Origin: Parasitella parasitica NRRL 2501
Lineage: Eukaryota; Fungi; Mucoromycota
Direction: 5' to 3'
DNA length: 64,000 nt
Assembly: GCA_025201805.1 (NCBI GenBank)
Contig: MU619364.1
Coordinates: 1-64,000, forward strand
This document shows, piece after piece, positions 1 to 50,399 of the stretch. The notes under the pieces were generated by a model that had not been told where the DNA came from, did not search any database, and saw only the letters and a program-made list of their open reading frames with translations. The translations under genes were made by a program, and so were the position numbers. Each line of letters opens with the position of its first letter. The stretch's first letter is position 1.

Positions 1-81
1 GTGTTATAGTTTCAAGTTTATTGAACACCTCCTCCATATTTTTTTGGATCTCTAACAATTTCTAAAAAAATAATCAGCAAT

Positions 82-999
82 ATGCCCGAGTTTCAGCACC
101 CAACCGACATGAATCAGGTTACTGTTATCATGCAACAGTTACAACAACAACTTGCCTCTCTCTCTGAACGTGTTAATCAACATGATGGTATTTTGGCTCG
201 TCTCGATGCTTTGGAAAAGGAAAACCAAACATTGAAAAAAATTTTACAAGACAAGGATCTGGTCATTGAAAAATTGCAGGCTACGTCACAAGAATATGCT
301 AAACACACACCCATCAAGGGGGGATCTGGATCCACCACTACTGCTACTGCCACTACTGATCCTGCTACTATTAGCTATACTGCTATAGCTAAGAAGGCTT
401 CTCATCGCCCTGACCCTACCAAAGCTGCCAAGAGAAAGTTGGCTGCTGGTCGTCTCTTCAAAACGTCTGCTACAAAGGGTCCCCAAGGATATCAATATGT
501 CTATATTGGTAGATCTGGTAAGATTTTACGCTCTGAAATTCGACGCACACTCAAACAACTTGGTGTGGATACCTCTCGTATCTTGGATATCAACTTCCCT
601 GCATCTGAAGCTATTGGTATTCTTCTACATACCCAATATGTAAATGAATTCTTGTCTCTGCTCCGTGAAAGTGGATCGGAAATCTTGGCTGATTTTGACC
701 CATTCAATCCTGCTAATATTGCCGATCCCAAGTACGCTGACTACACTGAACACGATCGTATGGAACTCACTGCTGAGATGGTCAATACTCGTTGCGTCGA
801 TGCCCTGTCCCACATCCGCCCACTCAATGTGAGTAGTGTTGGCCGTTGGTTCTTGGAGCTCGGATGGATTGGTCAAGCCGAACTGGACGAAGCTGTTGCT
901 GATGCTATGGACCGACTCAAGAAAAAAGACCCCACCAAGGCTGCTTTTCTGTTCAAGCGTCGCCGTGGTACTTCCACTGATTCTGAGATGGAGCTTTAA
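82..999 (+). CDS. LINE ORF1 protein (N-terminal coiled coil, basic central region)
   Basis: Intronless 305-aa ORF with heptad-like QQLQQQLASLSERVNQHDGILARLDALEKEN, directly upstream of RT-bearing ORF2. Confidence 0.8.
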   Translation: MPEFQHPTDMNQVTVIMQQLQQQLASLSERVNQHDGILARLDALEKENQTLKKILQDKDLVIEKLQATSQEYAKHTPIKGGSGSTTTATATTDPATISYTAIAKKASHRPDPTKAAKRKLAAGRLFKTSATKGPQGYQYVYIGRSGKILRSEIRRTLKQLGVDTSRILDINFPASEAIGILLHTQYVNEFLSLLRESGSEILADFDPFNPANIADPKYADYTEHDRMELTAEMVNTRCVDALSHIRPLNVSSVGRWFLELGWIGQAELDEAVADAMDRLKKKDPTKAAFLFKRRRGTSTDSEMEL

Positions 1000-3900
1000 T
1001 GTCTCTCATCAATGAATCATGGTCTGGTAATGTAAGTAATGTATCTGTCCCCCCAGTTTTTGTCTCTCTCTCCCTATGGAATGCGAATGGTCTTCGTCAA
1101 ACAACAGTTCATGATGTTATTTCTCATATTCTTGATACTCATGTTCTGTTTGTCACTGAAACTTGGCTCACTTCTGGTTCTTACCCAATTGACTGGTCTC
1201 AGTATCACTTGTATGGTTCGAAAGTACCTGGTGCTTTCAACCGTGGCTCTGGTGGTATCTCTGCTTTTGTCTCTCCCTCTTGTCCTTTTATGGTCTCCCA
1301 ACTCCCGTCCTACAACCCGCACACTCTGTCCCTCAAGGTTGGCACCCTTACGGTTCATTGTGTTTACCTACCACCACCCCTATCATCTGATAGGGTGCTC
1401 TCGACTCTCAACTCTCTGCCTCTGACTCAAGATACTGTTCTGTGGGGCGACTTTAATGCTAGGTTGGGTCCTTTGACTGGGGATTCTACCTCCAATGCTC
1501 GAGGAAATGCTCTCAAACCTTGGTTTGATGAACATTGTTTGTCTGTACTCAATGCATCTTTAGCGTTTGGTGTGAAGACATACTCTTCTTTCCGGCAGCA
1601 GCAGGAATTGAGTAGCATCATTGATCTGTTCTTGACAAACATTGGGGAGTCTGCCTTTTTGGATGCTCAGCTGGTGGTTGAGTCTGACTTGTCTCTTGGT
1701 TCTGACCATCGATTGATGACACTTACTTTTGGGTATGTGGCTGATGTTGGTGAAACTGTGGCTCCTGGTGATACTGGTCTGGCTCCTAGGCGTCAGTGGA
1801 AGCTCTCGAAATTGACGAAAGAGAAGCCTTTGGGCTTACTCTGTGAATCCTTTCGATCTTCAGTGTCTCCTCTGGTTGGTACTCTGTCTGGTTTGGTGTC
1901 TGCTCCCCCTGGCGTTCGTCCTGACATAGATGCACTCAACGATTCTTTGAATCAATGTTTGTATGAATGTTTGGATAGCTCAATAGGTGTGAAATCTGGT
2001 CGTCCTGGCCATTGGAAGAAGTACTGGACCCAAGAAATCCAAGATGCTGCTACTGAACGGGATCGTCTTTACAGTCGATGGCGGTATGCCTTAGGGTATA
2101 CTAAGATTGATTGCTGGGTCTTATACAAGCAAGCCCATCGACGGTTTCGCTCTCTGATACAAGCTGCTAAGCGCCGGTCGTGGCAAGCGTTCTGTGGTGC
2201 TCTGGAACGAGACTTTTCAAAAGCTACTGCTGCAATCAAACGCATTAAACGCAATAAAGAGTCTTCATCTACATACAGTCACCCCGACGGTCCTGCTGCT
2301 TCTGTTGCTACTATGGGCTCCCATTTGGCTACGGTCTACGATGGTGCTCTATTAGATACTGCTTCTCGTCCTGCTTCTGTTACATCAATGGTCTCTGATT
2401 TGCCTTTCTGCCTCCCTGCGGACATGTCCTTGTTTGATACTGATACCTTGGTATCATGTATTAAACGTCTGCCGACGCATAAAGCTCCTGGTCCCGACCA
2501 CATCAAAGCTGAGATGTTAAAAGCTCTGGTTTCAGAAATTGCCCCCGTGCTCTCTCTGCTGTTTAATCTCTGCTACCAATGGTCGTATACTCCTGGTTTA
2601 TGGCGACAAGCTCAGGTGTTTCCCATTTTCAAAAAGGGTGATGCTTCAGATCCTGGTAACTATCGACCAATTTCGCTCACTTCGGTGGTGCGTAAGTTGT
2701 TTGAATTCTGTCTCATGCCGGCTCTGGATGAACACTCCCCTGCTCTGGATATTGCTCAAGGTGGCTTCCGTCCTCAACGTAGTCCTCTGGATCAAGCCCT
2801 CTGCCTGCATGACTTGATGCATGATTACTTTCTGACTCACCGTCGCTATCCTGTGGTGGCTTTCTTGAACATTAAGTCAGCGTACGATACTGTCGATCGA
2901 AGGGTCATTTGGAAAGCTCTCTCTGGTTCTACACTACCTCGTCCTGTTCTTGGTCTTTTGATGAACATGTTTGACGATGTCTCGGTCTCAGTCTTGATTG
3001 CCAATCATACCTCTGCTGCTTTCTCTCCTGTTACAGGTGTACTTCAAGGCTCGGTGCTCAGTCCCCATCTGTATTCGTTGTATATCAACTCTCTACCGAA
3101 TCTTTTGCGTTCTGTTGATACTGGTGCTACGATGGTGACTCCCCCTGGTGCTAGTGGCCCTATTGCCATTAATAGTTTGCTCTTTGCTGATGATGTTGCT
3201 ATCTTTGGGTCTTTGTCTAGTGTCCAGTCCATGTTGGACCTTGCTGCCGAACACTCTGTCTGTCTTGGATATAGGTGGAACCCATCTAAATGTGCTGTGC
3301 TTGGGTCTCCTGCTGCCCTCTCTGATGCTAGTCTGACTCTATACGATGAACCGCTACCTTTGGTAGACGAGTTTGTGTACCTTGGCATGCCTTTTAGATA
3401 TAAAGGATTACATGCTCCTAGTATCTTGTCTCTGCGGTCTGCTGGTGCTGTTAAGGTTATGGCCCTGTTGAATTCTGTTGGTGTCAACCGTAATGGTTTC
3501 TCTCTGCTGCTCTGTTCTCGTCTATACAAGGCTTTCGTTAGACCCAAGATTGAGTATGGCCTCGCTATATCTCATCCTGACTATCGTACCTTTGAGGCTT
3601 TTGATAAGCTCCAAAACCGGCTGGTTGGTATGTTCGTGGGTGGTTCTTGGTTCCATGTTGCTAAACACATTACCTGTCTCCCTTCAATGAAGCATCGGTT
3701 TAATGTCCTGGCAACTAGGTATGCCCTTCGTTCTGAGACTCTACCTGAGGATAGTCTTGTGGTGGTTCTGCGTGGTCCGCTGTCGTACACTCGACTGGAT
3801 CGGTACATCTGTGAAAACAGTTTGTATAGATCTCTGCCTGACCCTGTTCCTTCTATTGCTGGTCTCAAGACTCACTTCTCTGACTACTGGCAAGATCAGG

Positions 3901-4358
3901 TGGATCAACAACTGGCTGCTGCTGCTACTACTGGTAAACATGTCTTGCTTCGTGCGTGCCGTCCCTCTGTCTCTCGCCCTGATCCCATACTGTATTTAAC
4001 TATTGGTAGATCTGCTCGCAGTCGTTTGGTTCGTTGGCGTCTTGGTCGTTTTGCAAACATGCGTGAGGATTGCCACTGCATGGATGGATCTTTTATCTCT
4101 CGAGATCACTTCCCTTACTGTCGTGCTTTGGATTGTAATCTTTGGGATGCTCTGCCTGCTGCTCCTCCTGGTGTTCATGTCATTGACAATGCTCTTAACA
4201 TGCTGCCTCTACGTGGTTCTGCTGATCCTCCAGTCTACTGGCCTGCGTTGCTCTCATTGCTCCATGCAATTGACTGTCTAGTACACCCTTTGGCTACTAT
4301 TGCTCCTGATCCCGACCCTGGATCATTGTGGTTCTATCCTCCTCCCTCTCGCGGCTAA
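999..4358 (+). CDS. LINE ORF2: APE endonuclease, reverse transcriptase and C-terminal CCHC knuckle
   Basis: APE motifs WNANGL, VTETW, GDFNA, IDLFL, SDH; RT motifs KAPGPD, YRPISL, QGGFR, GVLQGSVLSP, FADD, YLG; C-terminal CHC...H...C. Confidence 0.95.
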   Translation: MSLINESWSGNVSNVSVPPVFVSLSLWNANGLRQTTVHDVISHILDTHVLFVTETWLTSGSYPIDWSQYHLYGSKVPGAFNRGSGGISAFVSPSCPFMVSQLPSYNPHTLSLKVGTLTVHCVYLPPPLSSDRVLSTLNSLPLTQDTVLWGDFNARLGPLTGDSTSNARGNALKPWFDEHCLSVLNASLAFGVKTYSSFRQQQELSSIIDLFLTNIGESAFLDAQLVVESDLSLGSDHRLMTLTFGYVADVGETVAPGDTGLAPRRQWKLSKLTKEKPLGLLCESFRSSVSPLVGTLSGLVSAPPGVRPDIDALNDSLNQCLYECLDSSIGVKSGRPGHWKKYWTQEIQDAATERDRLYSRWRYALGYTKIDCWVLYKQAHRRFRSLIQAAKRRSWQAFCGALERDFSKATAAIKRIKRNKESSSTYSHPDGPAASVATMGSHLATVYDGALLDTASRPASVTSMVSDLPFCLPADMSLFDTDTLVSCIKRLPTHKAPGPDHIKAEMLKALVSEIAPVLSLLFNLCYQWSYTPGLWRQAQVFPIFKKGDASDPGNYRPISLTSVVRKLFEFCLMPALDEHSPALDIAQGGFRPQRSPLDQALCLHDLMHDYFLTHRRYPVVAFLNIKSAYDTVDRRVIWKALSGSTLPRPVLGLLMNMFDDVSVSVLIANHTSAAFSPVTGVLQGSVLSPHLYSLYINSLPNLLRSVDTGATMVTPPGASGPIAINSLLFADDVAIFGSLSSVQSMLDLAAEHSVCLGYRWNPSKCAVLGSPAALSDASLTLYDEPLPLVDEFVYLGMPFRYKGLHAPSILSLRSAGAVKVMALLNSVGVNRNGFSLLLCSRLYKAFVRPKIEYGLAISHPDYRTFEAFDKLQNRLVGMFVGGSWFHVAKHITCLPSMKHRFNVLATRYALRSETLPEDSLVVVLRGPLSYTRLDRYICENSLYRSLPDPVPSIAGLKTHFSDYWQDQVDQQLAAAATTGKHVLLRACRPSVSRPDPILYLTIGRSARSRLVRWRLGRFANMREDCHCMDGSFISRDHFPYCRALDCNLWDALPAAPPGVHVIDNALNMLPLRGSADPPVYWPALLSLLHAIDCLVHPLATIAPDPDPGSLWFYPPPSRG

Positions 4359-6992: not shown

Positions 6993-8582
6993 TCAAGCGT
7001 ATTCCGTAAATCTAGTATGTCCTGTTGCCTAATAATAGTTAGTATATGGAGTGTATATTCAAGACAATAATTATGAAATCTTACTGTCGCATGGTTTTGT
7101 GCATCTGCAAATATAATAAAAAGCCAAGTGAATTCTCTGATCTATGATGTATACATGGTAAAATTACCTTTTTCTCCTTTCAAACCAGTATTGCATTGCT
7201 CACACTTTATTGTGAAATTTGCGATATCCGTGAATTTACGACTCTATTTGAATGTTTGCGATAAATGAATCCAATAACAATTCATCGAGTCCTTGGAAAT
7301 GATAAATACCTTCCTTAGCCCATCAGTCAATTCCTTGGCTGCATCCAGCATAAAATCTGCATCAACAGAAAATCTGGTCTGATCAAAATCGGAAGAACTA
7401 TCAACAGATGGTGCTAGTGCCAAAGCATCGTAATCTACCCAGATAATTAGATGCATGAACAACTTTTGAGAACATATATATATGCCAGCTTACGGATACC
7501 GCTGTAAACAATCAAAACTCGTTGCTCAAAAGATCCTTCTCCAAATTTATCAATGCGGCCAGTTTGGACATCGATACTATCAATTTCTTAAGGCATACGT
7601 GTCAAAATAAACAAGAAAGATATTGTATACATGCATTTACCAACACCAAAGTGATCAGAAAAGATTGCAAGCTCTGCTTTAGAACGAATTATTAGTACAG
7701 CCCATATTATTCAGAGCTTTCCCTACCGATTGCGCCGCCCCATGAAGTTGGTTTTTGAATCCATTCCATGTACTTTTCTAAAAATCTGTTAATACTTTGT
7801 TGGTTCAATGTGTCATGTCATAAGCTAACCTCTTGACTGTCCCAATGTGGCATCAGAATATATATCTGGATCATTATTTATACCGTCCACAATCACTGAT
7901 GAAAATTTAATAATGCTAATTTTAGTGAGTAAACAGTGTCATTGTACCTTTCCTTAGCTCTGGAGATATTGTTGTGTCCCTTTGCATTACATAGCTACAA
8001 TATATTGTTTAGATTTTTATTAATGCAAAGACGTCTCAGTTGTTACCCTGATTAGACTCATTAGTAAGTGCGGTTGCCAAAGTCCTGTGTCTATTACCTA
8101 TTGATCTGAACAAACATGAGTTATCATCATCCATAACCTAATTAATGCCGTTTAGTAAGAGCCTTTGTGTTCTGAGCAAAATAAATATACAAACTCTTAA
8201 TTGTAAAACTCCATCCGCCGTTTGCACGGAGCCTTCTTTAAGGGTTTTCGAAACGCCAGTAATTGGTTGCTGAGGCTGTTCAAGAGGAATTGCATCCAAA
8301 ACTTTGATATTAAGAGTATCACCGTCTCGTAATCCAGCATCTGTCAGTTTGATATTCATATCGGTAAATTGCTTTGGTGGATAAGCTCCTGAAACTATAT
8401 GGTGCAAAATATGCATTAATGACAATATTAATATCAATGAGATTCTTTTTACTTTGAATGTCTTGAGTATTATCGACATGAATTGTATTCCTAATAATGT
8501 CTTTCAAGGTGGAAACCGTTTGATTTTGATTCACATCCGGAAGAGTTACTGTTCCTTCAGAGTGTCTTATACGTAATCTCAT
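6993..8582 (-). CDS. OTU1: OTU1/YOD1-type deubiquitinase (UBL, OTU, C2H2 Zn finger), multi-exon
   Basis: Spliced translation gives MRLRIR (UBL), GAYPPK, DDDNSCLFRSIGY (catalytic Cys), WGGAIELAIF, YSGIHYDAL (catalytic His) and CEQC...AQNHATATGHTRFTEY. Confidence 0.93.
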
Positions 8583-8713
8583 AATACGAGCAAAAGAAGA
8601 GTCTCCAAATTACCATTTCTTCCGACACTGATTTGTCTTGTTGCTTTGGTGACGACGTGTATTAGTTACAATTTTTTTCCTTTGCCTCTCTACATTACTA
8701 TTATATCTTGAAC
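8583..8713. promoter_or_regulatory. Probable bidirectional promoter between OTU1 and RTF1
   Basis: Only 131 bp separate the divergent ATGs. Confidence 0.5.
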
Positions 8714-10581
8714 ATGGACAACATCGACGATCTTATTCTTTCATTAACTGATAAACAAGCCGAAGATGCTAGAAGAAAAGATCACACGTCAAATAGTTCC
8801 TCTAAAAAGTCAAAGAAATAGTATGTCTCTATTTTTTTTTCGTTTTTCGAGGTTCTTTAACTTTTGTAGTAGCTTATCCGAATCAGAAGATGACGAAGGT
8901 GGTTACTCAGATGAGGATGATGTAGGCATTGATGACGATGAAGATATGGAGGACATTGATGAATACGGCCCTGATTTGTACAAAGATGAAGAGGATCGCA
9001 GAAGGTGAGACAACACATCAAGGAAATCGCCAAAGTTACTAAATCTTGATAGATTGCAAGCACTTCCTGAAGTCGAAAGAGAGAGAATTCTTGCTGAACG
9101 TTCAGAAGAAAGACAAAGAAACCTCGAGCGTCTTGAAGTCAGAAAATTGCTTAAAGATGGACGTAGAGACGATGCCACAAGACGTAAGACGATTTGGCTT
9201 AATACGTTGTTTTGATATTCATGATAGAATTCTAGGTTCTACTCGTACGAAAGGAAGCGGTACATCGAATGCTCTTTCAGAATTGACCAGACGCAGAGAA
9301 GAGAAGAGCAAAATCAGAGGCAAACGCCATCGAGATTCGCCTAGTCCAGATCGAAAGAGGCGTAGAAGACATGGTAACCAAAGCGATTATGAATATAGCG
9401 CGGAAGAGTATAACGATTCAGAGGAAGAGACTGAAAAGAAGGTATTTTCACCTTTGCACTCAGAGATATCAGAGTTCTAACTTATTGCATAGGCCAAGAA
9501 GAGAGCACCCAACCTGGAAGAAATTCAATCTGTGTCTATTTCAAGAAATATGATTGAAAAGTGGATATTTGCTCCATTTTTTGAAAATACTGTCATCGGT
9601 ATAATCGCAGTGTACAATCATAGCCTTTTCGATTATTAACATATATTGCATAGGGTGTTTTGTACGTTTATATATTGGTCCTGATCCACAAAAAAAGACG
9701 CCTGTCTACAGACTCTGTCAAATTATTGATGTTGTTCCATGGCATAAGACATACAAAGTAACTGAGAACGCGTTTAGTAACAAGGCATTAAAAGTGAAGC
9801 ACGGTAAAGCAGAGAAAGATTTCTCCATGGACATTGTATCAAATCAGCCTGTAACACAGCAAGAGTTTTCTCGTTTCTTAACAACATTGGAAAGCGATCG
9901 TGTTCGTGCGCCGAGTATTGATCAAATTGAACAGAAACTGGTCGATTTAAAACAAGCCAAAGAGTACGTTTTAAATGACAAGGAAGTAAATGAGATGATT
10001 GAAAAGAAGAAGGCGGTCAAGGGCTCATCTGTAAACGCTGCTATGGAGAAAGCTCAATTACTGGCACGTTTGGAACATGCGAAGGCACACAACGAAGTTG
10101 ACAAAGTGTTGAAGTTATCAAGGGAATTAAAAGATTTGGACGAAAGAGTCGCACTTGCCGAAGGCGCACAACAAAATGTTTGGGCTGATATCAATAGTAG
10201 AAACAGAAACAGAGACAAGATTGAAGTCCATGAAGCTGAACGTCGTGCCACTGAGGCCAGAAGAAAAGCATTATTGGAAAACACAAAGGCTGCTGCTGCC
10301 GCTGCCGCCGCTGCCGCCGCCGCTACCACCGCTGGCACTACGATAGAAACGTAAATACATTATAATCTCTGCTTTAAACAATTGATTTACAAACTCATTT
10401 AAATAGAGCTTCTGATTCCTCCTTGATGCCCATGGAACAATCAACTAAGCCGTTGGCTAACTTGGTTACATTAAGTAAACATGCATTGAATGTTGGAGAA
10501 GCAACATCTCATCAAACTGAATATGAAAAGCTAGTGAGCAAAGTAGCATTAGAAATTCGTATCCAACTTTTGGATGAATGA
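8714..10581 (+). CDS. RTF1: RTF1 (Paf1 complex subunit, Plus3 domain), multi-exon
   Basis: YGPDLYKDEEDRRRLQALPEVERERILAER; Plus3 core GCFVRLYIG...VYRLCQI...HGKAEKDFSMDIVSNQP; WADINSRNR. Confidence 0.9.
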
Positions 10582-11136: not shown

Positions 11137-12776
11137 ATGGTAACGGAATATATTTGAGTGAAAAAAATTCAACACAACTCATCCTCAAGGGGAATAAAAC
11201 AGGCCGTAGTTACTCAAGATATTAAAATATCATGTCATAACAGCGTTATCAAAGGCATTGGCGCCAAGTCTAACGAAGGACATCCATGGAGAAATTGGAA
11301 AATAACGCTTGTTGCGATGGACGGTGAAAGAGAGGTGAAGGGCAAGTTGTCTATGATATTAGATCATGTCGAATATATTCTGCATCCAACATTTGAAGAC
11401 CCACGTAGAGGTTTGTGTGAAATTGATCTTTCTATTATATATCATTCGAGTAATAATCGCCAGACAACACTAGTTAAAACAGAAGAGCCCTACATTTTGC
11501 AGGAAAAGGGATGGGGAGAATTCGATATGCGTGTCGTGCTGTACTTTACAGACAACATCACTGATCCACAGGTTCTCTTGTTCGATTTGAATTTTGCATT
11601 AAGCAACTACTCAATTACACACAGCATTGAATTTCCCAATGCATCTCCAGAGCTTGTCAAATTGTTATCTAGAGGCCCTTCTTCAGCATCTACTTCCATG
11701 TCAGCATCATTAGCATCCGGACCACGCAAGGGAGGAAAAAAGCCTGCGCCTAGTTCCTCTATAGTAGACAGTAGACAGGCCAAAAAGAAACCCAGTAGCT
11801 CCAGCCCTTATAGCAAAACTGCAAAGAAAGCAAAGCCAGAATCAAAATCGTCGACATCTATACCATCAAAGAAGCTGAGAAAATCATCTGTATCTTCCTC
11901 TTCTTCGCCTGCACCAGCGTCTGCTTATATTGCGGCACCACAGTCTCCAGTATACGATCATCCATCGCTGTCTGATCATTCTATCCATTCTTCACCTTCC
12001 CTTATTGCTACATCCACTCCCGAATTGCAGCCTGAAGACGACACAAAACTGATACATAGCCGATCCTCTTCAGATAGCTCCAACAAAAACGTTGATCACA
12101 CTTACAGAATAGCAGACGTTTACAACCTTAATCCAATTCATCATGCCAAAATAGACAAACGGCTGCGAGACCAATGGGATATTCCTGATGTACGTAGCAT
12201 TTTTATATTGAGAAATGATTGAGCTAATTGTCTGGACAGATCAATATGATGGAGTTAGCCAAAAGAATATATAGAATGTCTCCAGATCAAGCTAAAGAAT
12301 TTAGAAACTTGATTTTTGACAATACCCCGGAGAGCATTAAAACAGTGGTTGATCCAGGCAAGTTTACTGTAGCATTGACTTTTGTGTAGGTAATTGTCTG
12401 ATATCTATGGTTTTTAGACGGTAGCATTGGTATCGATCTTTACTCTTTAGGGAAGCCATTGCTCGAGAGGCTATGGGATTTCGTTGCCGACATGGCATCA
12501 GACGATAACGAATCCTTTACATCGCAAGACCATCACGATAGCGATTTAGAATTTGCTAGCGATGCAGAATTAGGGGAATATAAGGCTGAGGACACCAATA
12601 CAAACTATTCAGATATTGATGAGCCTGGATTTCAACAAAGCGACATAGAGAGCGATAACGCAAAAAATTATACAGACCAAAGTACCAGACAAAGCAATGG
12701 ATATCATTATAGTACTACTGGGGATGGTTATCATGAGAACTCGGATATGGATATACAAGATGATGATGATTATTAA
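11137..12776 (+). CDS. YEATS and ET domain protein (Taf14/Sas5-like), multi-exon
   Basis: YEATS motifs WKITL, VEYILHPTF, PYILQEKGWGEFDM; ET-like MMELAKRIYRM...IDLYSLGKPLLERLWDFV. The coding part of exon 1 is probably only the ATG at 11137, followed by a GT-AG intron to 11202. Confidence 0.82.
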
Positions 12777-21034: not shown

Positions 21035-21473
21035 TGTCTTTGAGGAATAAAATGTCTTAATTGCAAAACTTTACATTTTTAAGATGAGTGCAGTATTTTT
21101 GATTGAAGAGGGACATGGGGGATGTTCTCAATGAAAATGGCGGTCCTGAGTCCTTGGGAGTACATTGTTGGATCAGAATGAGATTGTTGTTGAAACAATT
21201 GCGACTCACACTGATTACTTGGAAAACTTTGCTTCCAGCGAATCTTTGGCTTGCCCAATGCAAATTGAAAAGCCAAAAGATGATGACATTCATATGAAGG
21301 AGGCAAGCATAAAATGGGATTATGTTCGGTATACGATCCAGGATAAGGTTTGATTTTTCGATCTGAAGATTGAAAAGTGCAGCCAAGCAGTTGAGCATTC
21401 ACATATGAAATGCACTGTTTATAACATTATTATGAGAAATAAATGCAATCTTCCATTAAAAAGAGCAGATTTT

Positions 21474-25868: not shown

Positions 25869-26690
25869 TTAATACTTGTCCCTGCTTGAAATATTCTTAG
25901 GGGGACATTTCTCTTCTCTCAGAGACATCTCAGTTTTCATCAGAAATAAAAAGTTTGTTATCAGAAATCCTTCCGTAATTCCTTTTGATAATGTGTCTTC
26001 CTGCCACTGCCCAAACTGTTCTATTGGATTAAGCTCAGGAGAATAGGTAGGAAGATACGCTTTATTTATATCCTCGATACTCAACATACTTCTTTATGTT
26101 TTCATGTGTGTGAATGGGTGTATTATCCATGAACTACGCAGTGACCTTTCATATGTGAATGTTTACTCTTTTCAGTGAGAGTTGTTTTAAAGAAACTGAT
26201 GTAGTGGCCTGTCTTTTCAATGGAAGGCTGCATTTACTTTTCATAATAATGTTATAAACAGTGCATTTCGTATGTGAATGCTCAACTGCTTGGCTGCACT
26301 TTTTAATCTTCAGATCGAAAAATCAAACCTTATCCTGGATCGTATACCGAACATAATCCCATTTTATGCTTGCCTCCTTCATATGAATGTCATCATCTTT
26401 TGGCTTTTCAATTTGCATTGGGCAAGCCAAAGATTCGCTGGAAGCAAAGTTTTCCAAGTAATCAGTGTGAGTCGCAATTGTTTCAACAACGATCTCATTC
26501 TGATCCAACAATGTACTCCCAAGGACTCAGGACCGCCATTTTCATTGAGAACATCCCCCATGTCCCTCTTCAATCAAAAATACTGCACCGATCTTCGCTA
26601 TTTGGAATCACTGTGAACACCGTCATCTTTAAATTTACAGGCAATTTATATTAGTCGAACTGGGGTGTATCGAGTTGATCTTCAAACATG
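25869..26690 (-). pseudogene. Decayed, internally deleted Tc1/IS630 transposase forming and extending the right arm of element A
   Basis: N-terminal HTH remnant, GHYISFLKTTL and YLPTYSPELNPIEQF (catalytic E motif); multiple stops. Confidence 0.75.
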
Positions 26691-45480: not shown

Positions 45481-46395
45481 GTAACAGTGAAAACCATGAA
45501 CTGAGATTTGTCTAGAATCAAAGACATAATAGAAATAATCAAGTTGTAGACCTCAAACGTAAGCTCAGTTGATGCAGTGGACGACACGCAAGGTAACCTA
45601 CGCCCAAGCACCTTTTTGCAGAAAACGACAACGTGAGATGCTTAATTGTAGACAGGGTCAATATCAGTAATTGCACCTAGTGTGTATGCTGGATCTTAAG
45701 CTCACTTCAAGTAATTTAGGATAATGAGAATACACAATCACACTTGACATTGACGATGTCAGTTTTATATGTAATGTTGTGTTTTACTTTAAAAGATAGA
45801 ATCAGCTTTTAGCTTTTACGAAAATACGTATATACGTATATGAATTAGGAAAAAAAAAAAAAAAAAAGGCGCCTATGTAGATAAATATTGGCATGATGTG
45901 CTCTAAACCCAAATAGTTTTTCGCCATTTCTCTGTTGATCCTGAATTGCAGCTGTATGGTATCATAATGTTTCCTTGTCCCAGCCACGCTTACAAAGTAG
46001 ATGTGAAACTACTCAAGTAGCATTGGACGTATAAATTTTCTAAATATTCTCTTTCAATTCTTTTGAGGACGATGTTTTTGACGCAACATTTATGATGAAT
46101 GAATCATGCTGCATTCATTGATGCCAGCATTATTGGTGCTCCAAGAATTAAGAAGTGGGGTTTTTTGACTGTGTTTGTTGGATGTACTGTTTTTTGAATA
46201 TGAGTTTGCGTTGAGATAAAAATTTATTTGCGCTGACATTAAAAGAATATTTACGTCAAGGTAAAAATAGTTTTGCGTTGCTTAGTAATAAATTTTGCGC
46301 CAAGAAATTAGAAAAAAAATATATAAAATAACCTAAAATATCGTAAAGGTTTCAACTCCTTTTTTCTTTTATTTAGTTTGAATATTAGAACAAAC

Positions 46396-47787
46396 ATGCA
46401 AAGCGTTAGTAAATTTATTACTAATAGTGAAATTATTTCAGATAACGATATGGACACTTCATCTGACGATTATATGGAAGATGACGAGCAAGAAGAAATG
46501 GAAATTGAGCATTTCAGTTTGAGCGAAGAATGGATGGAGAAAATAAGACGCATTGGGAATGATTCTCTATCATATGTACGTGAATATATGGAAGTAGATT
46601 TAATAGAGGAAGAGAATGAAGATTTTTTTGGAGATGCTTTTCTCTTCGCAGAGTCAATGCCATTGAGAAAAAGACATACGGCTTTGAATGTTAAAACAAG
46701 AGGTTCTTACAGAAAATATACTCCTAAACAAGTTGAGAAACTCTTCGACTTAATAATCGAAGAAGGATTCACGACAAAAGCTGCAGCTTTAGCCACTGGG
46801 ATTAATGTACGCACTGCCCAGAATTACGTTAAAACTTATAACAATGATCCTGAGAGACGACTTCCAGGATCTTATTCTAAACCTCATGGAAGACCTCGTA
46901 ATAAGTTGACTGAGGAGCATTCTAAATTTCTAGTTGACTATATCGAAAAGAATACCACTGCTATATTAGATGAGTTAAAGTTAAAACTTTGTGAGAAATT
47001 TGAGGGTTTAAAAATCTCTATTTCTGCCATCCACAAACATTTAGTACATAAGCATAAAATTACGTTAAAGAAACTTGAAAAAATACCAGCAGCAAGAAAT
47101 TCTGACAGAGTAATAGCATTACGAAAAGCGATTGTTGAACAATATAAGAGTGATGCAGATATGGATTTTTCTAAGAATTGTGTTTTTATCGATGAAGCAG
47201 GTTTCAATTTGCATACGCAAAGAAACCACGGCCGTTCATTAAAAGGCACACCTGCAAAGGGCACTGTACCAACTGGAAAAGGTGTAACATTTACAATTTT
47301 AGGTGCAATTTCTCAAGCAGGTATCATAAATATTGGAGTTAAAAAACCAGAATCAGCTTCTTCTAAAAAAAGAAGGGCAGATGGTAAGGAAGTAAAAATA
47401 AATGGCAAAGTTGGGACAAGAACTGAGCACTTTTTGGCTTATCTAAACAACGTAATGGATACACTGGATAAAAATAATATAAAGGGGCAGTATATTGTTT
47501 TGGATAATGCACCTATTCATAAGCCAAAAGTAATCAAAGCATTGATCGAAGAACGAGGACATAAGTGCATATATTTGCCACCATATTCTCCTTTCTTGAA
47601 TCCAATCGAGGAATTTTGGTCAAAAGTAAAGGCTGGTGTTAGAAGAACACCATTGACGACAGATGATCGTCTCACAGATCGTATATGTGAAGCGGCTGGA
47701 AAAGTAACAAAAAAAGATTGTGAAGGATGGATTAAGCATTCAATATCATTTTTCCAGAAGTGTTTGAATGAGGAAAGAAATCTTTAA
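46396..47787 (+). CDS. Intact Tc1/IS630-type DD34E transposase (left arm)
   Basis: HTH (AAALATGINVRTAQNY), GRP, second HTH; FIDEAGF, VLDNAPIH, YLPPYSPFLNPIEEFW; 34 residues between the second D and E. First ATG at 46396. Confidence 0.95.
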   Translation: MQSVSKFITNSEIISDNDMDTSSDDYMEDDEQEEMEIEHFSLSEEWMEKIRRIGNDSLSYVREYMEVDLIEEENEDFFGDAFLFAESMPLRKRHTALNVKTRGSYRKYTPKQVEKLFDLIIEEGFTTKAAALATGINVRTAQNYVKTYNNDPERRLPGSYSKPHGRPRNKLTEEHSKFLVDYIEKNTTAILDELKLKLCEKFEGLKISISAIHKHLVHKHKITLKKLEKIPAARNSDRVIALRKAIVEQYKSDADMDFSKNCVFIDEAGFNLHTQRNHGRSLKGTPAKGTVPTGKGVTFTILGAISQAGIINIGVKKPESASSKKRRADGKEVKINGKVGTRTEHFLAYLNNVMDTLDKNNIKGQYIVLDNAPIHKPKVIKALIEERGHKCIYLPPYSPFLNPIEEFWSKVKAGVRRTPLTTDDRLTDRICEAAGKVTKKDCEGWIKHSISFFQKCLNEERNL

Positions 47788-47854
47788 AATAGTCAGTAGG
47801 AGTGCAGCTTTCAACAGACGCACTCTGAATGCTCACTGAGATTTGAACAACATG

Positions 47855-47925
<71 letters not shown>

Positions 47926-48082
47926 AAAGGAAAAAAGAAAAACGATAAAAGCAAGAAGAAAAGTTAATATTGAAATTAAAGGATAAAAAAGCCCATCATT
48001 TAATAACATAAATGCAATACATATGAATAAATACTGTACAACCATTAATATCTTAAAGCTTAACATAAATATATCTACAGTA

Positions 48083-49756
48083 TTAAAATCGAACTGGGCA
48101 ACTTCGATTACGGTCCTTTGTTGGGTCTGTCAAATCAATCAAATCAGTAAGTTTTACTGATGTTCGGCGTCTTTGTTGCATAATACTTGGTATATCAGAC
48201 TTTTTACAGAACTTCCAAAAGACATGGCATACAAGTAGCAAGATATTCAAGTTTTTAAGGTTTGTGAAAACTGGAAGTTGTGCCAAAGAGGAAGGGAATT
48301 CAAGGTGGCCGACCTCATACATAACATAAAGTCCGTCATGGTCCAGTCTTGTTAGAAAAAATGTAATGGCAAATCCTATATTTACAAAATTAGCTACTCT
48401 CAAACACAAATCTATGGGTATAGTAGACATAAAAAAATTAAATTACCGTGGATTTGAAATGAAATTGAAGACTCCAGAAGGTGCAAGTCAATAGCTTCCT
48501 TGCTAAAACAAGCGACTCTCGCCAAGTCCATACATAACGCCGCTTTGTTACATGTTGGTTCCGCAATTTTAACTTCACCGTGTCCAAGGGTAGCACTAAA
48601 CTTTAGTTGGTCAACAATAGAAACTACAGCATCTGGTCTCAAAGGCAAACTGGGGCTAATAACTTTGTCTAGCCACCTTAACAATACTGATCTTTCTGAA
48701 TTAGCAAGAACACAAGACAACAACGAGTCGAAATAAGTATTCCAGAGCTCAGTTTCACTAATGGCGCTCACATCATTTATGGAATTCTTGGGCAACTTTT
48801 GAATCCTAAGGCGAAGATAAGAAGGTGAGAAGGTGAGAAGGTGAGAAAGGGAGAATGGTATTCAACGAGAAGAAACACTTACAACATAGCGAGACCCACT
48901 ATGACTCTCTGTTTTTCATATGGCATCTTTGATGCAATTTGTAATAATCCTGCAGTAGTTGACAGTACTGATGTGATTCCGGAGTCTAGGTTCATAATGT
49001 TTTCAACGATGCTCATAAATTCTGCTGGAGTAAACTTCATATCTGGAATTCAATTTTCTTCTGGAATTCATCATGTATTTTGGCTAACAAAGAATCAGTA
49101 AAGACTGAACGCATCAAGTGACTGTACTGAAGGGGTTGTAGCAAGAGGATATTATTTAATGACAATAATTCCTGAACATGTTCTTCCATCTTGAGAGTCT
49201 GGTTGCCCTGTATTATACGTTTCACTTCGTTTTTAAAGATTCGGAAACAATCTTGAATATCATTCAATGGCTCTTGTTGTACATGTTCGTGATGTGGAGG
49301 TTCTTGTGCCGGTTCATCGTACAGGAGTGTCCTTGCTTGTTCATCATTCAAATTGACTTCGCTTGCTGCTGCATCAGGTATAATTTCTCCAATTCTTGCT
49401 TGAGTCTGTGTTGACAGTTCTTCATCACCATTTCGTAATTCATTAGCTTCCTGTTCAGCAACATCTCCGACATAGTCAGCGCAGATTCCATGTATTCTAT
49501 CTCTTACAATATTTCGTCGTTTCTCCTTCCAGTAATTTTTGTAATCAGATGATAATTTGAATGCTGTAAATTCTCGTGTCAATTGTTGGACTTTCTCATT
49601 ATTAACCAGATATTTCTGTAAGATAGTGTTATATCTGCGATTAGCTTTTCGGCTGTCGGTAAAATTATATTCGTCAAAGAAGGCTTTTGCTGTTAAGGTT
49701 TGAATATTCTCTTTGCACCATTTTGCATCATCAGGAATCTTACGTGGCATTTTCAT
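48083..49756 (-). pseudogene. Cargo gene with PD-(D/E)XK-like nuclease motif; 2 introns and one frameshift near 49050
   Basis: Introns 48882-48806 and 48446-48376 (GT-AG) join SETELWNTYFD...LLRWLD...RPDAVV...LGHGEVK...LCMDLARVACFSKEAID...FQIHGFAITFF...DGLYVMYEV. Confidence 0.75.
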
Positions 49757-50399
49757 GTAAAAAAGACAAAAAAAAAACGCTGTTACTAAATGAGAATGCG
49801 GTCATTTACTCCGATTTCGGTCATTTAATGGTTTGGGTGGGAAAGTACTGATGACAAAGTGGCTTCGCGACATTTATCTCTGACGGCTTCAAAAAAAAAA
49901 ATTGTGCTTGTTTTTTTCTTTTTGTTTTTGTAAGTGCCAATCATGAAGATGCCCTGTGGCCAGTAGTTTGTGATTGTGATAGAATTGTATATTTCTTCTT
50001 GAATCATAAAGCGAAAAACCCCGGATACTGTCTCCCCTGCGATGTTTACTATTTTGCAAATGTCCCTGGAGATGGGTTGTTCATGTTTCTTGAATGCGTT
50101 GCAGCTAGTAGTCTGTGATTCCTTAATAGAAATATGTATTCACTGGCGAACCCTCCCGATATCATCTCTCTTGCGACATTCACTATATTGCGAATGTCCC
50201 CAGAGATGAGTTTCAAGAAGGCACTTACGCATTACTTTTAACTGTGAAGCTTTAAAATTTACTTCAGTAATTTTAAGTCAAGAAGATTCAAAAACAACGC
50301 TAAGTATTATCCTGATAACATTAACACACTGTTATTCTAAACGTAATTTAAAACTAATTATATTTTTTTTGAACTTTATAAGTATATTATTCAGCCAAT

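Follow-up and report, generated by a model that had tools for sequence, protein, structure and literature searches.

The OTU1 gene of Parasitella parasitica NRRL 2501 most probably contains an exon of a single nucleotide. With a probability that we put at about 0.9, the G at position 8047 (minus strand) is an exon that completes the codon for Gly124, and the two introns on either side of it are most likely removed sequentially. The gene lies in a window of 64,000 nucleotides (contig MU619364.1, positions 1 to 64,000), to which all positions refer.

The whole OTU1 model runs on the minus strand from an ATG at 8582 to a stop codon at 6995-6993, with 13 exons, 12 introns of 50-66 nt, and a product of 305 amino acids. 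Exon 1 (8453-8582) encodes a UBX-like (UBXL) domain (PF21403, E = 4.7e-08) and is connected by a contig joint (8394-8453) to exon 2 (8195-8394; 200 nt). Exon 3 (8098-8137; 40 nt), delimited by the gene model and homolog comparison, carries the DDNSC motif with the catalytic Cys118, and its last base is the first of Gly124. Intron 3 (8048-8097; 50 nt, phase 1), the one-base exon (8047; the middle base of the GGC codon), and intron 4 (7995-8046; 52 nt, phase 2) follow, splitting the Gly124 codon after its first and second bases, six residues past Cys118. Exon 5 (7948-7994; 47 nt) opens with the third base of Gly124. The remaining OTU domain (WGG174, His221) and a C2H2 finger are encoded by exons 6-13 (6993-7895), whose eight introns are joined in a spliced RNA contig; like exons 2 and 5, these are supported by the gene model and the contig together (exons 6-9: 7895-7830, 7777-7727, 7673-7641, and 7586-7494; exons 10-13: 7434-7310, 7243-7168, 7104-7085, and 7028 to the stop).

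The UBXL domain on exon 1 and the C2H2 finger on exon 11 (PF24560, E = 4.3e-08) identify the gene as OTU1, and the catalytic motifs DDNSC118, WGG174, and H221YD are all present in the one-base-exon model. Two intact relatives (P0011 and P0012) match the Pfam OTU domain PF02338, which two mis-spliced models (P0001 and P0002) do not, and P0011 matches solved OTU1 chains with E = 4e-35. These Pfam and structure matches belong to relatives or to single exons; the one-base-exon model itself was scored on a purpose-built homolog profile, described below. Deubiquitinase activity and Cdc48 binding of the encoded protein are predicted from the family, in which the UBXL domain mediates Otu1-Cdc48 binding (10.1101/2025.11.08.687396, consulted in part).

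OTU1 stands head to head with an RTF1-like gene with a Plus-3 domain on the plus strand. Their RNA contigs stop at 8584 and start at 8686, respectively, and the roughly 100 bases between them are a candidate shared promoter. Two arms of 2377 nt (46182-48558 and 50395-52771) are 100% complementary and 1836 nt apart; each contains a 486-codon DDE_3 transposase frame and an 88-nt poly(A) run, and a 254-codon frame without a Pfam match lies between them. They could be two inverted copies of one element that were paired recently, parts of a composite element, or an artefact of assembly. Two further inverted-repeat pairs (56749-57418 with 59664-60332, and 21081-21464 with 26212-26595), 97-99% alike, are probably transposon ends, and a LINE-like element occupies 25-4358 on the plus strand, with a 324-codon frame and, after it, one of 1123 codons that has endonuclease and reverse transcriptase domains.

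The splicing signals around G8047 are ordinary. Intron 3 reads GTAATA...CAG with CTAAT 13 nt before its end, intron 4 reads GTAACA...TAG with CTAAA 14 nt before its end, and a complete acceptor and a complete donor flank the single base (CAG-G-GTAACA, 8050-8041). The site scores (donors 7.1 and 4.5, acceptors 6.0 and 4.5, for introns 3 and 4, respectively) fall inside the range of 28 RNA-joined introns in the window, those of intron 3 in its upper part and those of intron 4 in the middle. The lengths of 50 and 52 nt likewise fit these 28 introns (48-66 nt, mean 56.3, SD 5.2). A preliminary description made from the sequence alone had proposed this layout, and its coordinates, its typical intron lengths, and the GT-AG ends all hold; the CTAA-type motifs are in place as described, their use as branch sites being putative. 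That removal of 8097-7995 as a single 103-nt intron shifts the frame into a stop was also borne out, the stop falling at codon 126. Retention of intron 3 or of intron 4 creates an in-frame stop as well, and with both introns out the sequence reads FRSIGYV in the 305-residue frame.

The preliminary description had further called the exon apparently obligatory. As a statement about the frame this was too strong: of the GT/GC-AG combinations tested, 10 out of 76 with one intron and many of the 354 with two also leave the frame open, so the frame alone cannot force the one-base-exon reading. What settles it is the spliced contig, which demands the removal of 102 nt between 7994 and 8097. The AG-N-GT motif is not distinctive by itself either, because a loose double-intron motif finds a mean of 2.8 matches per shuffled window (30 shuffles); within the 103-nt stretch, YAG-N-GTR with two introns of at least 40 nt arose in 325 of 20,000 shuffles, and the motif stands above chance only given its place. 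A window-wide scan for double introns was discarded as a detector, having missed G8047 through a donor pattern that excluded GTAAC, and its candidate at 9654 was a false site, the first base of a long RNA-joined exon. No special RNA structure was found across introns 3 and 4 (fold z 0.21).

Transcript evidence came from one public run (X1) of one study, in the form of contigs rather than reads and of presumed RNA type. A contig of 1170 nt at depth 226 spans OTU1, and it is spliced, because introns are skipped along the gene. Ten of its 11 joints in OTU1 coincide with predicted GT-AG sites. The eleventh connects 7994 to 8097 and removes 102 bases, the sum of 50 and 52, with one G kept, which is the mRNA junction that had been predicted. 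Positions 508-835 of the contig record (328 nt) equal the sum of the model exons including the one-base G, and the contig exons agree with the window without other letters or gaps in the four pieces listed. Taken as a single intron, the 102-nt joint would be TA...AG or GT...TA, both non-canonical; among 29 joints listed, a tally that includes 15 of 36 joints from a second comparison, 27 are GT-AG, one is GC-AG, and one is this joint. The GC-AG case is a 60-nt intron in a YEATS-domain gene (12358-12417, plus strand), joined in an RNA contig and containing an internal AG-GT at 12388-12391; it accounts for a joint at 12355-12416 that had appeared odd. G stands at 8097, 8047, and 7995 alike, and any of the three fits the contig as the kept base, so the transcript cannot name its source. 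Among the joints and pieces listed for X1, whose contigs hide rare forms, there was no 103-nt joint of the skipped form, no half-spliced intermediate, and no retained intron.

Comparison with homologous proteins favors the same model. Exon 10 is identical to the corresponding part of a deposited P. parasitica protein (BD408DRAFT_447322; P0001), and this record bears out the statement that gene predictors miss such exons: it is mis-spliced here, translating intron 3 as coding and omitting exon 5, and differs at the C-terminus too. The latter deviation lies at the last intron (7084-7029, minus strand), where P0001 goes without the second half of the C2H2 finger and the contig backs a 56-nt intron. 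In the one-base-exon model, the spacing from Cys to WGG is 56, as in most homologs. On a profile of 56 outside homologs, this model was the best of eight splice readings at 383.8 bits, followed by 368.8 bits for the next reading, 345.9 for the deposited P0001, and 73.3 for the skipped form; the profile was built from sequences picked for a spacing of 56-57, which favors the one-base-exon model. Other in-frame readings (donors 8111, 8057, or 8046 with acceptors 7995 or 7960) were ruled out by site scores, profile score, and the contig.

Orthologous DNA was sought in metagenomes with a degenerate motif ending at the Gly codon (DDNSCLF[RS]x[IVLM]G), which misses orthologs with other residues, such as the FNAIA of Mortierellaceae. 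It returned 60 loci, none of them Mucorales-like. In 56, the sequence reads through the Gly codon in frame to an LR/MR motif with no intron there; these comprise 29 distinct 20-residue peptides that appear ascomycete-, basidiomycete-, or alga-like by eye. Several basidiomycete-like loci share a neighboring intron at codon 140, and two also one at codon 111, without the Gly124 pair. Two loci (L038 and L058) look like chance matches and were set aside. The same pattern gave two chance matches only in prokaryote genomes and no match in viral contigs. In the other two loci, L019 and L052, an intron interrupts the Gly codon after its first base, with YAG-G-GTA following. The AG-G-GT arrangement that the preliminary description had suggested looking for in orthologs was thus found in Glomeromycotina-like DNA. 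L019 (28% GC; nearest named proteins from Funneliformis) has the complete layout, a 79-nt intron, G, and a 75-nt intron, and skipping of the G leads to a stop. In L052, which is closest to Paraglomus brasilianum (98.9% over 95 residues), a 107-nt intron precedes G and a GTA donor, and the contig is cut off 37 nt after the G, before the next exon. Each has a weaker alternative reading. L019 could be spliced with one in-frame 124-nt intron, which would add 10 residues and give a Cys-to-WGG spacing of 70, vs. 60 with the one-base exon and a typical 56, and it has AAG as its second acceptor; in L052, a further AG lies 50 nt into the intron. By chance, YAGGGTR arose in 130 (L019) and 373 (L052) of 20,000 shuffles. 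The AG-G-GT layout therefore probably exists in Glomeromycotina as well as in this Mucoromycotina gene, as judged from genomic sequence.

Public protein models carry traces of the same junction. Records were grouped by source name, with P0048 and P0122 placed by similarity. In pairwise alignments to the model, an indel starts within two residues of codon 124 in 14 of the 54 Mucoromycotina records that cover it, against 23 of 540 at ten other junctions (at most 5 of 48 at any one); Fisher's p for this difference is 6e-7, with the caveat that these records are related and have annotation pipelines in common. By a motif rule, 36 of the 57 Mucoromycotina records aligned are intact, 15 are broken at the junction (15 of 51 that bear the motif), and six are without the motif; the broken set includes the record of the Parasitella gene itself. 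Of 28 Glomeromycotina records, in which the rule was applied to this junction alone, three pass, 21 are broken (21 of 24 with the motif), and four lack the motif; one of those that pass, P0123, diverges straight after. Near-identical proteins fall on both sides: Thamnidium elegans is represented by an intact (P0011) and a broken (P0227) model, Mucor mucedo is intact and Mucor saturninus broken, and Mucor lusitanicus is intact and Mucor velutinosus broken. An intact model does not imply that the exon is absent, because such pairs differ only in annotation. For Rhizophagus irregularis, P0126 and P0213 are intact and seven others broken, and Gigaspora genome models are broken, whereas the Logan-derived P0122 of the same cluster is intact.

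All 13 Rhizopus-labelled models that bear the motif are intact, which suggests that Rhizopus lost at least one of the two introns. One further record, P0035, is labelled Rhizopus arrhizus yet clusters at 90% with M. lusitanicus, and starts just past the junction. A model from Conidiobolus coronatus (P0163) skips an exon after the same Gly codon, with a spacing of 40, as many Mucoromycota models do; this gap is a weak hint that the same layout may be present in Zoopagomycota, with a still older origin. The one-base exon explains the damage to OTU1 models six residues after the catalytic Cys, which affects most of those from arbuscular mycorrhizal fungi and many from Mucorales, and some damaged models lose their Pfam OTU match.

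A stepwise removal of the two introns would account for the mature transcript. Each intron of about 50 nt would be recognized across its own length (intron definition). The first acceptor overlaps the exon-side bases of the second donor, and the two introns would accordingly not be engaged at once, an argument that rests on the footprints of U1 and of the 3' splice-site factors. Whichever intron left first, the G would become joined to the neighboring exon and an ordinary intron would remain. Because the second donor is preceded by AGG both before and after removal of intron 3, either order would work. The same steric argument has been made for the one-base exon of APC11, as set out in the available part of PMC4674806. 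Inclusion of G8047 is probably constitutive. The exon's probable origin is a pair of intron positions separated by one base in an ancestor of Mucoromycota, rather than a regulatory device; we consider it likely that the exon predates the split between Mucoromycotina and arbuscular mycorrhizal fungi, and it is perhaps older.

Four other explanations were weighed against this reading. The one that survives best adds to it and does not replace it: the exon would be real but regulated, with conditional skipping removing a 103-nt intron and placing a stop at codon 126. The skipped mRNA would be degraded, or its product would be a protein of 125 residues that retains Cys118 and the Cdc48-binding UBX-like domain, lacks His221, and is predicted to be inactive. 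Skipping would pair the strong donor at 8097 (score 7.1) with the normal acceptor at 7995; if either intron were cleanly lost the protein would be unharmed, and still the pair appears to have been kept in two subphyla; and a condition-dependent fungal microexon is known from Trichoderma Xlr2 (PMC11121469, in part). Against this, a 103-nt intron is far outside the local range of 48-66 nt, the APC11 one-base exon is described as constitutive in the portion of PMC4674806 consulted, and many fungi appear to manage without the exon, judging from the read-through loci (56/60) and the Rhizopus-labelled models (13/13). The preliminary description had supposed that skipping would act as an on/off switch for the enzyme; neither a 103-nt joint nor a retained intron is listed for X1, which does not favor the idea but, since contigs drop rare forms, does not refute it. 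We regard regulated skipping as unlikely, and still more doubtful the specific proposal that an ancient one-base exon has been kept as a splicing-sensitive switch, with skipping turning OTU1 off or yielding a UBXL-only protein that occupies Cdc48.

The contig joint itself could be produced in a single step if one non-canonical 102-nt intron (GT...TA or TA...AG) were removed, the kept G coming from 7995 or 8097 and the AG-G-GT being incidental. In either placement, such an intron agrees with the contig no less well than the one-base exon. The shifted sites needed, a donor at 8096 with a score of -8.9 and an acceptor at 7996 with -13.9, are outscored by all 28 real sites, no other joint among those listed is non-canonical in this way, and the internal motif recurs in L019 and L052, rarely matched in shuffles of either locus; this explanation is very improbable. 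There is an equally slim chance that the assembly lost one base at an exon edge and that the true intron is a single, ordinary one of 103 nt. The GG runs at both exon edges would mask a one-base slip, but the contig exons match the window in the pieces listed, the 103-nt stretch resolves into a pair of normally sized introns whose four sites are all good, the same phase mismatch occurs in L019, and the break recurs at this residue in models from many other genomes. A recursive splice site is a zero-length AG/GT from which no base is kept between steps, and it was rejected here because splicing removes 102 bases instead of 103, leaving one behind. A stwintron, in which one of two introns sits inside a splice signal of its partner and no exon separates them, has next to no probability: two abutting short introns removed in turn do resemble the fungal stwintron layout, but both introns carry complete signals in the unspliced sequence, and the flanking bases are unfit for the [D1,2], [D2,3], and [A2,3] types as defined in the accessible part of PMC5587772, [D1,2] needing T after the first AG and [A2,3] needing A before the second GT and G after its AG, where the window has G, G, and C.

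The one-base exon of OTU1 is a new example of an already known rarity, and it involves no new mechanism unless regulated skipping is shown. The few published cases are joined by a transcript-supported one from an early-branching phylum of fungi, in which two subphyla apparently share it. With two introns of about 50 bases and tractable Mucor relatives, it is a compact system for asking how such introns are removed and in what order. Among the papers listed by a literature search in which few subscription papers were covered, none reported a one-base exon in OTU1 or in Mucoromycota. The preliminary description had called single-nucleotide exons very rare, which overstates the case: a genome-wide long-read count in Coprinopsis cinerea lists 13 one-base exons in 13 genes (PMC12230235), and OTU1 is not named in the five supplement text files of that paper that were searched.

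The comparisons that follow draw on portions of the published texts. Coprinopsis resembles the present case as an intron-rich fungus in which omission of the exon often leads to a stop (PMC12230235). The closest parallel in layout is found in the CYP621A P450 genes of Fusarium, where a one-nucleotide exon is supported by spliced reads (PMC12940212). Both are fungal, with AG-G-GT and a G that forms the second base of a Gly codon within a conserved stretch; both have a phase-1 followed by a phase-2 intron, conservation in orthologs, and support from spliced transcripts. They differ in gene and phylum, and the Fusarium case is confined to one genus, whereas the OTU1 layout appears in Mucoromycotina and probably in Glomeromycotina. 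Among plants, one-nucleotide microexons of APC11 and VPS55 are widely conserved (PMC8831610), and for that of Arabidopsis APC11 the proof came from base substitution in a minigene (PMC4674806). With these (PMC4674806, PMC8831610), OTU1 shares a frame-essential base between two canonical introns that is missed by annotation, long conservation with loss in some lineages, and a proposed sequential removal. The APC11 base is an A, behind an upstream intron of about 330 nt, and has the proof by substitution, whereas the OTU1 exon is known from the contig and the sequence. Stwintrons of Pezizomycotina are similar in having two short U2 introns at positions one base apart and consecutive removal under intron definition; in OTU1 the introns are each complete, with one base left between them, whereas a stwintron has an interrupted splice signal and no exonic base (PMC5587772). 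In its protein, the Parasitella gene is like other OTU1/YOD1 deubiquitinases, with a UBXL domain, an OTU domain with Cys118 and His221, and a C-terminal C2H2 finger, and only its exon layout is unusual.
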